A stretch of DNA of 64,000 nucleotides from an uncultured Bacteroidales bacterium (GTDB lineage Bacteria > Bacteroidota > Bacteroidia > Bacteroidales > B18-G4), in NCBI GenBank assembly GCA_964404735.1, contig CAYOLA010000067.1, positions 8,619 to 72,618 on the forward strand. Direction: 5' to 3'. The translations under genes and the position numbers were made by a program. The notes under the pieces were generated by a model. It worked only from the letters and a program-made list of their open reading frames with translations. It was not told where the DNA came from and ran no database searches. Shown here one piece after another: positions 7,226-20,576 of this stretch (within the stretch, counting starts at the first letter, position 1; each line of letters opens with the position of its first letter).

Positions 7226-8140
7226 GTGAAGGGAATCGTTACCAAATCTACCGGAAGCTGGTATACCGTCATGGATGGTGACGGCCGTGAAACCGACTGC
7301 CGCCTGAAAGGAAAGTTCAAACTGGCCGGAAGTAAATCGACAAACCCGCTGGCAGTTGGCGATCATGTCGAATTTTTGATGCAGCCTGAGGAAGATACCG
7401 GGCTGATCACTGCCATAAGTCCAAGAAAAAACTACATCATCCGCAAGGCTACCAAACTTTCGAAGGTTTCACATGTCCTTGCTGCAAACCTCGATCAGGC
7501 CATGATCATTGCTACCCTGGCCGAACCACGGACTTCAACGGGTTTCATCGACCGATTCCTGATCACGGCTGAAGCATATCACATCCCTGCCGCCGTTTTC
7601 TTTAACAAAACAGATCTCTATAACGAAGGCCAGATGGAAGAACTCAGGGATCTTGAAGATATTTACCGCCGAGCCGGTTATATTACACACAGTGTCTCGG
7701 CCCGGAGCGGACAGGGTCTCGGGCGTTTCCGTGAAGTGCTCAATGATCGTGTTACCCTCATTGCCGGGCATTCGGGGGTCGGCAAGTCAACCCTGATCAA
7801 CTGCATCGAGCCTTCCCTCGACCTGAAAGTGAAGCCCATCAGCAAAGCGCATAAGAAAGGATTGCACACCACCACTTTTGCCAGGATGTTCCGTTTGTCA
7901 TTCGGGGCTTTCATTATTGATACGCCCGGGATCAAGGAGTTTGGTCTATACGAACTCGACCGGGCCACCCTGGCCGAAAGATATCCGGAAATGCGCGCCC
8001 TGATGCACCAATGCCGTTATGCAAATTGCACCCACCTGCATGAACCCGGCTGTGCGGTTAAAAAAGCTGTGGCAGAAGGTGCAATCAGTGAATCAAGATA
8101 CGATGGATACCTCCGCATTATGGCGGGTGAAATCCTGTAA
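7226..8140 (+). CDS. rsgA: Ribosome small-subunit-dependent GTPase A
   Basis: OB-fold N-terminus KGIVTKSTGSWYTV. Circularly permuted GTPase motifs NKTDL, GHSGVGKST and DTPG. Zn-finger CRYANCTHLHEPGC. Start set at in-frame GTG 7226 because the track start (7055) lies inside the cupin gene. Confidence 0.85.
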   Translation: MKGIVTKSTGSWYTVMDGDGRETDCRLKGKFKLAGSKSTNPLAVGDHVEFLMQPEEDTGLITAISPRKNYIIRKATKLSKVSHVLAANLDQAMIIATLAEPRTSTGFIDRFLITAEAYHIPAAVFFNKTDLYNEGQMEELRDLEDIYRRAGYITHSVSARSGQGLGRFREVLNDRVTLIAGHSGVGKSTLINCIEPSLDLKVKPISKAHKKGLHTTTFARMFRLSFGAFIIDTPGIKEFGLYELDRATLAERYPEMRALMHQCRYANCTHLHEPGCAVKKAVAEGAISESRYDGYLRIMAGEIL

Positions 8141-16986: not shown

Positions 16987-17021
16987 AAAAAAATTACCCG
17001 CCCCAAAGGCGGGTTTTTTTG
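16987..17021. terminator. Bidirectional rho-independent terminator between ompH (+) and the cytochrome c gene (-)
   Basis: 7-bp stem ACCCGCC (16996-17002) / GGCGGGT (17008-17014) with loop CCAAA. A7 run upstream and T7 run downstream. Confidence 0.75.
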
Positions 17022-17097: not shown

Positions 17098-17973
17098 TCA
17101 GGCTCCCAGTTTCCGGATCTTTTTAACCTGCAGCAATACGTATAGGATCACCCCCATGATCCCTGCTATGGTGCCGAAAAAGGAGATCAGCAACCACAGC
17201 GGGACATAGTCGTTGTCTTTCCAGAGTTCCCTTTTTTCGTTCCAGTAAGTCTTTTTTCCGATGCCCCAGGCAATTTCCTGCATGGCTTCCTCCGGGTAGT
17301 ATTCGCTGTCTTCAACCCTGGCAATTACCTGTAAAAGCCCATTCTCTCCCGGTATGCCTTGCGGGAAGTCAATGGAAACAATGCCTTCACTGCCGGTATA
17401 GTTCCTGTTTCCGCCAATCAGCATATCTGCAAAATACCTTTTGATGTAGAAGTTGACCCTGATCTCCCTGGCAGGGGTACGCTCTCCGTTTTCAAGGATC
17501 TCATAAACACGGGCAATAACGGTATTGACGCTGTCGTTTTCGTTGAATTCGAGCACGACCGCAGCGTTTTTCCTCGATATTTCTTCAACCGGTTCAGCGA
17601 AGGTCCGTATGTAATTGATCACATGCCAGAGGTCGGTATCTGCCGATGTTCTGAAGCTGGGCATCAGGCCGCGGCCTTCCTGTAATTTATAGAAGAGGGC
17701 CCCGTCGGTCTGGTCGGTGAAAGCCTTGATGGTCATATTCCCCGAAGGGATCACACCGTCGCCAAGACCTGTGGCTCCATGGCAGGCCTGGCAGTTCATT
17801 TCATAAAAAACTTTTCCGGCATCCAGGGTTTTTTTATTGACTTCGGTGGGGTTGATGATATCATCGGCTTCGGGCGGGACAATCCAGGGCGGGAATTGCG
17901 TGGAAGCCAGCAATACCATACAACTGAATATGAAGAAGGCGCCGAGGAGTTTATTTTTAATGCTTGCTTTCAT
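17098..17973 (-). CDS. Membrane-anchored monohaem c-type cytochrome with extra beta-rich domain and C-terminal TM helix
   Basis: N-terminal hydrophobic anchor, a single CQACHG haem-binding site with a candidate distal Met in GRGLMPSF, a ~150-aa beta-rich region, and a C-terminal helix LWLLISFFGTIAGIMGVILYVLL. Confidence 0.8.
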   Translation of the reverse strand: MKASIKNKLLGAFFIFSCMVLLASTQFPPWIVPPEADDIINPTEVNKKTLDAGKVFYEMNCQACHGATGLGDGVIPSGNMTIKAFTDQTDGALFYKLQEGRGLMPSFRTSADTDLWHVINYIRTFAEPVEEISRKNAAVVLEFNENDSVNTVIARVYEILENGERTPAREIRVNFYIKRYFADMLIGGNRNYTGSEGIVSIDFPQGIPGENGLLQVIARVEDSEYYPEEAMQEIAWGIGKKTYWNEKRELWKDNDYVPLWLLISFFGTIAGIMGVILYVLLQVKKIRKLGA

Positions 17974-17997
17974 GTTTCGGCAGTATTTGGTCTTTGG

Positions 17998-19371
17998 TTA
18001 TTTCTTTAAATCGTCCAGTACAACTTTTTCATGTGGGTTTTCATGGCCGTTTTCCCTGGCCGTTTCCCAGATGGGGACCAGCGGAAAGAACTTTGCAAAC
18101 CAGGTTATTATGAGCAGTACGATGGCAATGGTCATCAACGTGATCACCGATTCATAATACGTAGGAATATAATGATGCCAGCTTTCGGGCACGTTTTGTA
18201 TGGGCAGGGTGGGGTTGAACTGGGTGGGGATAACGATCAGCATGCGTTTTGTCCAGGCAAAGACGATCACCAGCAATGAGATGATGAACAGCGGCAATGG
18301 TTTTCTGACACCTTTAAACAGGAGCAGGATGAGCGGAATGATCATCCCTCCGGTTTGTGTAGCCCAGAAAAGCGGTGCTTCACGGCCGACAAAAAGGTCG
18401 AGCAGGTGCTGGCCCTCGAGTTTCTGCATTTTATAGCCCGGAACCAGAAATTCGTTGATGTTAAAATAGAGGTATACCAGGCCGGTGAGGAAGAGCAGGC
18501 GTCCCATCATGTCGAAGTGCTTTTGGGTGATATAGTTCTTCATCACGGGGCGGCTTTTCAGGATGATGTACATGGCGGCGAGCACGGCAGCAGCCCCCAC
18601 CATGAAGGCACCGGAAACGAAATAGGGGCCGAAGATGGTACTGTCCCATCCGGCTCTGCTGTTAACGGCAAAAAGCCAGGAGGTAACGGTATGGATAGCA
18701 AAGGCTACGGGAAGGACTACAATAAGCATGATACGGATTGACTTTTTAAGAAGCTTCCATTGCGCTGTAGTCCCTTGCCAGTTCAGGGCCAGCAAATGAT
18801 ACATCTTTCGCTGCCAGCGGGGTTTTTCGTTCAGGGTGTCGCGCATGATGGCTATATCCGGTATCATGGGCAGATACAGCAGGATGATACTAATAAGCAG
18901 ATACATGTTTACCACGGTCACATCCCACACAATGGGCGATTGTATCCTGCCGTGGAGAAAGATATTCATGACCCTGTCGGGACGGCCCATGTCGATGATG
19001 ATGGTCACGGCGGCCAAAGCAACCGCAGCCACGGCGATGATCTCCGCAATGCGCGTAATGGGTGTTGCCCATTTGATATTGAGAAGTTTCAGTATGGCTG
19101 TGACCAGTGAGCCCACGAGGCTGACTGCCACCAGGAAGACAAAGTGCCCGATATACATCCCCCATGATGAATAATCACGCATGGACGTTACGCCAAGGCC
19201 CGTAAACAACTGGTAAATATAAGCCATGGCTCCCACGGCAATGAGAAATATCAGCAATCGGGTCCAGAGCTTGTTGCGGAATTTTTCTTTCCTTACCGGT
19301 TCGAGCAGCTCGGTGACGATCACCTTCAGGTCTTTTCCTGTTTTGTTGTTTTCGGTTATTTCAACAGCCAT
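17998..19371 (-). CDS. NrfD/PsrC-family quinone-interacting membrane subunit (10-helix, ActC-like size)
   Basis: 457 aa. I count about 10 hydrophobic helices by eye. It lies directly downstream of a Tat-exported 4-cluster-type ferredoxin, which is the usual NrfC-NrfD pairing. Confidence 0.75.
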   Translation of the reverse strand: MAVEITENNKTGKDLKVIVTELLEPVRKEKFRNKLWTRLLIFLIAVGAMAYIYQLFTGLGVTSMRDYSSWGMYIGHFVFLVAVSLVGSLVTAILKLLNIKWATPITRIAEIIAVAAVALAAVTIIIDMGRPDRVMNIFLHGRIQSPIVWDVTVVNMYLLISIILLYLPMIPDIAIMRDTLNEKPRWQRKMYHLLALNWQGTTAQWKLLKKSIRIMLIVVLPVAFAIHTVTSWLFAVNSRAGWDSTIFGPYFVSGAFMVGAAAVLAAMYIILKSRPVMKNYITQKHFDMMGRLLFLTGLVYLYFNINEFLVPGYKMQKLEGQHLLDLFVGREAPLFWATQTGGMIIPLILLLFKGVRKPLPLFIISLLVIVFAWTKRMLIVIPTQFNPTLPIQNVPESWHHYIPTYYESVITLMTIAIVLLIITWFAKFFPLVPIWETARENGHENPHEKVVLDDLKK

Positions 19372-19382
19372 AATGATAATGC

Positions 19383-20369
19383 TTAAATGGTTGATACCGG
19401 TGTTTCATCATCCCGTTCCTGTTCAAGGTAGATGTTTTCTTTGCGAAACGGGAACCTTCTGTTTTTCGGGGGCAAATAGTAAACCTGCGGTTTTGTTCCG
19501 AGCTCTTCGTGGACCGTATACCCGGCGTTTTCCCTTATCAGTTCACTGAATACGACCGTTTCGCCCGTAGTGCCGTTGGTGACGGCATCTTCTAACCTGT
19601 CGCCGAAGTAATAAACGCCATTGGGGCAGGCCGAAACACAATAGGGCAGTTGTCCCTTACGCAGGCGGTCGGCACTGAACAGGCATTTTGAGATGGTACC
19701 GCGTTTTTGCGGAACATTGAGTTCCACATCGTAAACCCTTTCTTTTTCCTCATCGGTAAGTTGGGGCTCGAACCAGTTAAAAATCCTGGCTGAGTAAGGG
19801 CAACCGGCAATGCAGAAACGGCAGCCGATGCAACGCAGGTTGTCGATCAGCACGATGCCGTCCTTTCTCTTAAAGGTGGCATTGACCGGGCATACTTTGG
19901 TGCAGGGAGGGTTATCGCAATGGTAGCAGGGTTTGGGCATGTAATAGGGGGCAGTATCTTCCGCATCCTGCATTTGTAGTACATTAATATGATGCTGTTC
20001 AGGGCGGAGTTCATGTGCCGATTGGCATGCCGACATGCATTTTCTGGCATTCTGGCATCGCGAGAGGTCGATGACCATCACCCAGTGATGTCCGGTCAGG
20101 CCTTCGCGGCCGCGTTTCTGGTATGTGCTGAGGACTTCATCCCGGTTTTCCGTTGATTCGCCGGTAACTGGCTGAAGCGTGGAAGAGTCTGCTTCGACCA
20201 GCCGTCCGTCGGTGGTCATAACCCTGACCTTTTCATCAGTGCCGGCCTTATCATCGCTGCATGAAGCAAGGATACCACTTCCTGCTACTACACCGGCGCC
20301 AAGCAGAAAACCCGATCGCAAAAAATCACGCCGGGAATCGCTGCCGGTATTTTTCTTTTTTTTCGCCAT
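19383..20369 (-). CDS. Tat-exported NrfC/PsrB-type iron-sulfur subunit
   Basis: Twin-arginine signal SRRDFLRSG with lipobox-like ILASC. Cys motifs are CQNARKCMSAC, CYHCDNPPCTKVCP, CIGCRFCIAGCP and CLFS...CVSACP. Confidence 0.85.
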   Translation of the reverse strand: MAKKKKNTGSDSRRDFLRSGFLLGAGVVAGSGILASCSDDKAGTDEKVRVMTTDGRLVEADSSTLQPVTGESTENRDEVLSTYQKRGREGLTGHHWVMVIDLSRCQNARKCMSACQSAHELRPEQHHINVLQMQDAEDTAPYYMPKPCYHCDNPPCTKVCPVNATFKRKDGIVLIDNLRCIGCRFCIAGCPYSARIFNWFEPQLTDEEKERVYDVELNVPQKRGTISKCLFSADRLRKGQLPYCVSACPNGVYYFGDRLEDAVTNGTTGETVVFSELIRENAGYTVHEELGTKPQVYYLPPKNRRFPFRKENIYLEQERDDETPVSTI

Positions 20370-20376
20370 GTAAAGT

Positions 20377-20400
20377 TTACCTTAGATTTTATCAAGGTAA
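20377..20400. promoter_or_regulatory. Perfect inverted repeat TTACCTT-N10-AAGGTAA just upstream of the Fe-S gene start
   Basis: Read directly: ttaccttagattttatcaaggtaa. It lies 8-31 nt upstream of the ATG (20369-20367). Possible operator or 5'-UTR hairpin. Confidence 0.35.
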
Positions 20401-20576
20401 AAATAACGAAAATAAATATGTCGTAATGATTGAAGTATTCTAATACCTGAATATGACGTGATTTAAAAGCATTCTAAATAAATGCGCAAGCAGCATGAAT
20501 GCGATAGTGCCAGCCGGGCGGCGAAGAACATGGTTTCGGTTATCAGGACCGGGTGCTGCTTGAATGAAGGAAATAC

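Follow-up and report, generated by a model that had tools for sequence, protein, structure and literature searches.

A ferredoxin, NrfD-family and one-haem cytochrome c gene trio as a candidate compact menaquinol:cytochrome c oxidoreductase of Bacteroidales

Aerobic and microaerobic respiration in the Bacteroidota is usually drawn with alternative complex III (ACIII) between menaquinol and the cytochrome c oxidases; our reference for this complex is ActABCDEF (structures 6F0K, 6BTM, 6LOD and 8K9E). Related membrane modules are described from other pathways. DsrP carries a demonstrated quinol-oxidising site from which electrons pass to a periplasmic iron-sulfur (Fe-S) protein and on to a c-type cytochrome (PMC13047784; bioRxiv 10.64898/2026.08.25.746951), a “DsrOhPh-tetrahaem” cluster has been put forward in cable bacteria as a candidate alternative complex III (PMC13047784), and modules of the QrcCD, NrfCD and PsrBC type are considered capable of functioning with no catalytic subunit (PMC6303296; PMC3534657). 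Here we describe a trio of genes on the minus strand of a 64,000-nucleotide stretch of DNA from an uncultured Bacteroidales bacterium (contig CAYOLA010000067.1, positions 8,619 to 72,618; hereafter the window, in whose own numbering we give coordinates). The trio encodes a 328-amino-acid (aa) Fe-S protein (19383–20369, identified as an open reading frame (ORF) with profile matches), a 457-aa NrfD-family membrane protein (17998–19371, from its ORF and matches in profile and structure databases) and a 291-aa cytochrome c (17098–17973, from its ORF, a profile match and a structure model). We read this trio, with a probability of roughly 0.7, as a compact menaquinol:cytochrome c oxidoreductase standing in for complex III, because its relatives are linked to caa3 and cbb3 oxidase operons, its cytochrome is found fused to the membrane subunit, its distribution complements that of ACIII and bc complexes, and its host has a caa3 oxidase for which neither ACIII nor bc1 was found as a donor. 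A first-pass annotation of the window had proposed a minimal, periplasm-facing quinol:cytochrome c oxidoreductase without a catalytic subunit, and these same lines of evidence support that proposal.

The linkage to terminal oxidases emerged from a search of 201 evenly drawn Bacteroidales genomes with the membrane protein, in which matches fell into three tiers of identity: orthologues at 49% or more (41 of the 201 genomes), a paralogue at 32–36%, and ActC-like proteins at 28–32%. The haem-copper oxidase subunit COX1 is encoded in 38 of the 41 orthologue-bearing genomes versus 42 of the 160 others, and the three orthologue-bearing genomes without it are assemblies of 440 to 990 contigs. Gene order was then read at 39 orthologous places mapped by tblastn. 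The order Fe-S protein, NrfD-family protein, cytochrome c is held at 35 of these, which establishes the trio as a conserved unit in relatives. SCO-CoxI-CoxIII-CoxIV-CoxII-CtaB comes directly after the trio at 17 places, two further places have a caa3 operon within ~4–7 kb, and at one place, in genome G025, the trio leads into a cbb3 oxidase cluster, CcoNO-CcoP-CcoG-...-CcoI; none of the 39 has a molybdopterin or multihaem gene adjoining the trio. The description of the trio as an orphan thus fits the lineage of the window, in which no oxidase genes adjoin it, but fails elsewhere, where the trio sits inside oxidase operons. On one contig (C145 of G120; L054) the trio, a probable cbb3 CcoNO gene (called from its COX1 score class alone) and a caa3 operon follow one another on one strand.

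Fusions tie the cytochrome to the membrane subunit. In one genome (G018) the two genes form a single 771-aa ORF (L053:9283-11595), and a database search returned at least 20 further distinct NrfD::CytC fusion proteins of 750–771 aa (P0124-P0145); the cytochrome is therefore a dedicated partner of the membrane subunit. In a closed 5.4-Mb genome (L069) the fusion gene stands within the row HMA-FeS-NrfD::CytC-SCO-COX1-3-4-2-CtaB. The signal segment of the cytochrome would become an eleventh membrane helix in such fusions, or could still be cleaved. The first gene in the L069 row, directly 5′ of the Fe-S gene (7684-8010), encodes an HMA-domain copper chaperone, and no HMA-domain gene is found 5′ of the trio in the window.

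An A-type oxidase is encoded in 54 genomes, of which 26 carry the trio without an ACIII-like ActC, 24 such an ActC without the trio, two both and two neither, where the ActC-like tier was verified as ACIII in G178 only and assigned in the other genomes by identity tier together with cox adjacency. A strong cytochrome b match is absent from all 26 trio-only genomes, and in one of the two genomes with neither system a cytochrome b gene adjoins COX1. The sample includes closed genomes, such as G153, that combine the trio with caa3 and lack ACIII. In caa3-bearing genomes the distributions of the trio and of ACIII come close to complementing each other. In G178, a closed genome, a string of ActB (986 aa)-ActC-...-cox and a string of the trio with a second caa3 operon stand in tandem (L056/L057, ~1,555,000-1,586,000), and from these parallel strings it follows that the trio occupies the operon position of ACIII, 5′ of SCO-cox.

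The host genome carries the argument to the organism itself. Its assembly (2.87 Mb, 169 contigs, 89% complete) holds a complete caa3 operon on another contig, SCO-CoxI-CoxIII-CoxIV-CoxII(cyt c)-CtaB, and also encodes a cytochrome bd oxidase. A profile search across the assembly returned a single PF03916 match, that of the trio, and neither a cytochrome b nor a Rieske protein was found, nor any ACIII or bc1 complex in the assembled 89% of the genome. On this gene content, the host caa3 has no known quinol:cytochrome c link besides the trio. A second genome of the same genus (G123, 94% complete) repeats the pattern, with one NrfD-family gene, an orphan copy of the trio, beside an otherwise donor-less caa3.

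The first-pass annotation had described the membrane subunit as an NrfD-family protein of about ten helices and of ActC size, a description upheld by its PF03916 match (98.9 bits, gathering score 25.8), ten hydrophobic segments and an alignment to ActC from end to end. The protein carries no cofactor motifs. Its only matches among solved structures are four ActC chains, over the full length (6f0k_C, E 8e-48), and no match to PsrC was obtained at E 0.01 in the structure database. In profile scores it lies nearer to another family: against NCBIfam DsrP it reaches 136.9 bits, under that profile's cut-off of 350, compared with 88 bits for the split paralogue discussed below and 60 bits for a true ActC of the same order. 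We mapped the quinol-pocket residues of ActC, as given for R. marinus (PMC5928083), through the ActC alignment, and found W82, I86, F89, D169 and H247 retained as W70, I74, F77, D150 and H227. Of the ActC residues His139, Asp169 and Asp253, only Asp169 is kept (D150), with D127 standing for H139 and L233 for D253. W70, F77, D127, D150 and H227 are invariant in 36 orthologues, and position 74 is Ile in 33 of the 36 and Leu in three; together with I74, these five are putative quinol-pocket residues. At the position of the ActC His, DsrP is reported to carry a strictly conserved Asp (DsrMKJOP preprint, bioRxiv 10.64898/2026.08.25.746951), and the trio protein shares this DsrP state. By these measures, the profile scores and the Asp at the ActC His139 position, the protein is a member of the ten-helix DsrP/ActC/QrcD group that is nearer to DsrP than to ActC and falls in neither curated family.

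The Fe-S protein bears a twin-arginine (Tat) motif, SRRDFLRSG, and an LASC lipobox, both as first annotated. The RR motif recurs in 32 of 34 orthologues by the pattern used and the lipobox in only six, with L023 (...GGSC) perhaps one more; on this count the lipobox is a lineage trait. A profile search matched the protein to Fer4_11 (78.3 bits), and among NCBIfam profiles DsrO scores highest (179.8 bits against an equivalog cut-off of 200), ahead of TtrB, QrcC and NrfC, while the closest solved relative is PsrB (2vpw_B), with ActB a weaker match. Compared with a full four-cluster ferredoxin, with four Cys motifs, 16 ligands and a Tat signal, the protein has the Fer4_11 domain and the Tat motif and holds 14 of the 16 canonical cluster Cys. 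Alignment to PsrB, ArrB and ActB places the two losses at the second Cys of motif I (C105-x2-A108-x2-C111-x3-C115) and of motif IV (C229-x2-S232-...-C244-x3-C248-P), replaced by Ala108 and Ser232, and shows motifs II and III to be canonical, motif III reading CIGCRFC without variation among the orthologues. Ala108, Ser232 and all 14 cluster Cys are invariant across 34 orthologues, which confirms the motif reading of the first-pass annotation and leaves the two positions as invariant Ala and Ser.

In 2x[4Fe-4S] ferredoxins, a cluster is held by the opening three Cys of one motif, whose fourth Cys serves the neighbouring cluster. We combined this pattern with the ligand numbering that we take to hold for NarH, with which the residue offsets of the PsrB/ArrB/ActB alignment agree; the second position of motif III, at the membrane-proximal cluster, is occupied by Trp in NarH and by Thr in ActB. 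On this basis, the three-Cys sites of the trio protein would be FS1 and FS2, in the half of the wire distal from the membrane. These sites probably hold [3Fe-4S] or Cys3Ser clusters of raised potential, with [3Fe-4S] chemistry at both being suggested by the missing ligands.

The cytochrome protein has a single CQACHG haem site and a Met104-Pro105 pair, and C61xxC64H65 and M104 are invariant in 31 sequences; it matches PF13442 at 39.8 bits. Its structure model (pLDDT 88) comprises an N-terminal helix, a class I cytochrome c domain (residues ~30–127), an Ig-like beta-sandwich (~135–234) and a C-terminal transmembrane helix (~259–290), the cytochrome c domain resembling cytochrome c552, ActE and c6 in fold. 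The first-pass annotation had a monohaem protein with an extra beta-rich domain, anchored at both ends; the haem site, the beta-sandwich and the C-terminal helix all stand, and the N-terminal anchor is doubtful. Across orthologues the hydrophobic stretch at the N-terminus runs into A/S-x-A|Q-like sites, and because these resemble signal-peptidase sites the segment probably serves as a signal peptide that is cleaved off, not as another anchor.

Relatives with a divided cytochrome help to delimit its parts. In five genomes of the paralogue tier (L064-L068: G122, G071, G065, G094 and G070) we observed a split module in which a Tat-type Fe-S protein and an NrfD-like protein at 32–36% identity are joined by two separately encoded proteins, one a beta-sandwich plus helix and the other a small one-haem cytochrome c; in G065 the module occurs as three tandem copies. 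The cytochrome c and the beta-sandwich-plus-helix are likewise separate genes in the Chitinophagales bacterium Danxiaibacter flavus (L011). Because it is encoded apart from the cytochrome c domain in such split relatives, the beta-sandwich with its anchor is, on this comparison, a subunit in its own right. The Fe-S proteins of the split family keep the Ala of motif I (Val in one copy) and have a normal motif IV Cys, so Ser232 is specific to the trio form. Among 400 phylum-level genomes, the full fused cytochrome with its beta-sandwich was not found outside Bacteroidales, and the search outside the order returned only split small cytochromes and separate beta-sandwich proteins, which added nothing on oxidase linkage.

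Set against ACIII, the trio shares a likely function, from quinol to cytochrome c or caa3, a membrane subunit for which ActC is the sole solved relative and with which it has the pocket residues W, I, F, D169 and H247 in common, a cytochrome c domain like that of ActE, and a Tat-exported Fe-S module of four motifs. The differences are extensive, however. The trio has no pentahaem ActA, no second NrfD-like subunit ActF (one PF03916 match in the host and one in G123) and no ActD seen beside it, a subunit for which there is no profile to search with. Its Fe-S protein has 328 aa, matches ferredoxin-type families only and lacks the molybdopterin-like B1 domain, whereas a true ActB of the same order (L056) has 986 aa with a QrcB-like N-terminal part; true ActC of the same order is only 28–32% identical to the trio's membrane subunit. 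Furthermore, the three-Cys site of R. marinus ActB is motif III (CIGTRYC), which is membrane-proximal, while in the trio that position is a normal Cys (CIGCRFC) and the three-Cys sites are the distal ones of motifs I and IV, an arrangement opposite to that of ACIII. The first-pass annotation's idea of a stripped-down ACIII-like unit was accordingly not borne out, the best profiles being DsrO and DsrP, and we rejected descent from ACIII by reduction on profile scores, pocket residues and cluster layout.

DsrOP provides the highest curated profiles for both subunits (DsrO 179.8 and DsrP 136.9 bits), and like the DsrOhPh-tetrahaem cluster the trio stands alone with a cytochrome c partner. Both scores nevertheless fall below their cut-offs (200 and 350), no dsr-like gene lies within ~10 kb of the trio, its cytochrome is a class I protein with one haem, joined to a beta-sandwich and a membrane helix, rather than a tri- or tetrahaem protein, and the linkage is to oxygen reductases. 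With QrcCD, NrfCD and PsrBC the trio shares a cofactor-free NrfD-family quinone site joined to a periplasmic four-cluster ferredoxin, but these systems lack the cytochrome c/beta-sandwich/anchor subunit, the Ala and Ser substitutions and the oxidase-operon linkage; PsrC and NrfD have eight helices to the trio's ten, and Qrc reduces quinone. The bc1 and b6f complexes share the presumed role of a quinol:cytochrome c oxidoreductase ahead of cytochrome c oxidase and have no homology to the trio, which is without cytochrome b, Rieske protein and Q-cycle architecture.

In the mechanism that we propose, menaquinol would be oxidised at the side of the NrfD-family subunit, with its protons released to the periplasm. 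Electrons would enter the membrane-proximal [4Fe-4S] cluster, ligated by the final Cys of motif II together with the three leading Cys of motif III, and run along a four-cluster wire whose two distal sites are of the three-Cys kind (Ala108; Ser232). From there they would reach the haem of the third subunit, tethered on the complex by its beta-sandwich and C-terminal helix, and pass to the cytochrome c domain of caa3 subunit II and finally to O2. The comparisons establish the domain content, the conserved residues, the conserved unit of three genes with its operon linkage and fusions in relatives, and a distribution complementary to that of ACIII; which way electrons flow, which clusters are present, where the haem domain docks and whether protons are translocated are what we infer in this scheme. 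The broader proposition, on which we are evenly divided, is that the trio represents a third, minimal “complex III”, in which a quinol subunit resembling DsrP and ActC works with a ferredoxin carrying two [3Fe-4S] clusters at its distal sites and with a one-haem cytochrome on a tether. Such a complex would take the place of ACIII and bc1 in many Bacteroidales, supply caa3 as well as cbb3 oxidases, and might conserve energy through its NrfD-like subunit.

Several observations weigh against the menaquinol:cytochrome c reading. A quick tree of the orthologues, built from Bacteroidales sequences only, gave three groups: a large clade with all oxidase-linked copies and several unlinked ones, and two smaller clades of unlinked copies only, one of which contains the copy of the window. 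Two genomes, G001 and G200, carry an unlinked copy (from the other small clade) together with a caa3-linked copy, and because both kinds coexist there the orphan-type copies may have diverged in partner or function. At 89% completeness, the host strain could have an ACIII or bc1 that is missing from the assembly. Two pocket residues of ActC, H139 and D253, are replaced in the membrane protein, both replacements being invariant in the 36 orthologues. An AlphaFold2 model of the 771-aa fusion reached a mean pLDDT of only 54.5, with the cytochrome part below 50, and no interface between the two parts was visible. We found no description of the Bacteroidales Fe-S/NrfD/one-haem module or of its oxidase linkage in the searchable literature, which did not cover the NrfD survey of Duarte et al. 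2021 (BBA Bioenergetics 1862:148416), where the group may already be named.

The best-surviving alternative, although an unlikely one, builds on the first of these points. It holds that the trio is a general outlet from menaquinol to the periplasm, whose main acceptor is a di-haem peroxidase of the MauG/MbnH type or a di-haem lipoprotein, serving peroxide detoxification or some other periplasmic reduction. The host does encode a CCP_MauG-family (MauG/MbnH-type) di-haem protein and a di-haem PSCyt1/cytochrome c lipoprotein, neither with an obvious quinol dehydrogenase of its own, and these are its only other cytochrome c-dependent candidates; the window's copy, moreover, belongs to an “orphan” subclade without oxidase linkage, and orphans of the neighbouring subclade coexist with oxidase-linked copies in G001 and G200. 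Such an outlet would, however, leave the host caa3 without an electron donor, and within the window's own subclade a caa3 operon lies ~7 kb from the trio in one relative (L012) and a ctaB-like gene ~1.3 kb away in another (L019). The two proposals are also partly compatible, since one cytochrome c reductase can serve both acceptors.

Two further alternatives are far less probable. The trio could run in reverse, as Qrc does, with a periplasmic donor reducing the cytochrome c and, through it, menaquinone: an NrfD-type module acts as a quinone reductase in QrcABCD (PMC6303296), and the QrcC and QrcD profiles match the trio weakly. Yet no locus links the trio to a periplasmic hydrogenase, a formate dehydrogenase or a multihaem donor of the c3 type, the linkage to terminal oxidases and to the assembly genes SCO and CtaB points the other way, and a class I Met/His cytochrome c is, on general knowledge, expected to be high-potential and a poor reductant of menaquinone. 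As improbable is a role as the membrane and electron-transfer part of a larger enzyme with a molybdopterin or multihaem catalytic subunit elsewhere, for although NrfC/NrfD-type pairs serve a catalytic subunit in most described complexes and the edge of contig C77 carries one molybdopterin-family ORF, this ORF resembles formate dehydrogenase-alpha/NuoG and stands beside a rubrerythrin gene and outside any respiratory cluster, none of the 39 orthologous places has such a gene beside the trio, and the fusions in at least 20 proteins mark the cytochrome as the membrane subunit's dedicated partner.

In looking for a catalytic partner encoded elsewhere in the host, we found none. The C77 ORF, the sole molybdopterin-family ORF in the assembly, was rejected as formate dehydrogenase-alpha/NuoG-like, and the host NrfA is paired on another contig with its own quinol dehydrogenase, NrfH. 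Besides NrfA and NrfH, the multihaem proteins of the host comprise an octahaem cytochrome of the tetrathionate-reductase family, also on another contig (C71:1447-5567; L058). It was rejected because it has a quinol dehydrogenase of its own, a cytochrome b561: the octahaem protein has an N-terminal helix, and its gene is followed by that cytochrome b561, two sulfur-transport-family proteins and a rhodanese domain, a possible sulfur-compound respiratory unit.

Within the window, the three genes are co-oriented and separated by gaps of 11 and 24 nt, as first annotated and as the ORF coordinates confirm. A 207-nt intergenic region 5′ of the Fe-S gene (20370–20576, minus strand) is the presumed promoter and leader of the trio, and between the convergent ompH and cytochrome c genes lies a GC-rich hairpin with T-runs on both strands (16996–17014, assigned to neither strand), a probable bidirectional terminator closing the unit. 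With this upstream region and the hairpin at its 3′-end, the trio looks like a self-contained transcription unit. Its neighbours encode BamA, two OmpH/Skp proteins, two TPM proteins, LemA, HtpG, a DUF554 protein and a type IX secretion system (T9SS) hydrolase; the flanks of ompH and TPM/LemA genes are thus as described earlier, no respiratory genes are among these neighbours, and no multihaem gene was found in or beside the trio among the ORFs of the window and its neighbours. Elsewhere in the order, one genome (G198, L034:3680-10712) has a second NrfD-like orthologue alone, with no Fe-S or cytochrome partner, directly after narH-narJ-narI-like genes and two MFS transporter-like ORFs (named by eye from ORF N-termini).

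Public records label the module only as “polysulfide reductase NrfD” or “4Fe-4S protein”. If the trio is indeed a menaquinol:cytochrome c oxidoreductase, about a fifth of the sampled Bacteroidales genomes would use an undescribed and much smaller enzyme in place of ACIII, and metabolic reconstructions that look for bc1 or ACIII would wrongly conclude that such organisms cannot use the cytochrome c oxidases they encode. The trio would also be the simplest natural test bed for whether a lone NrfD-type subunit couples quinol oxidation to charge separation, and for the role that three-Cys clusters would play in the distal half of a PsrB-type wire.

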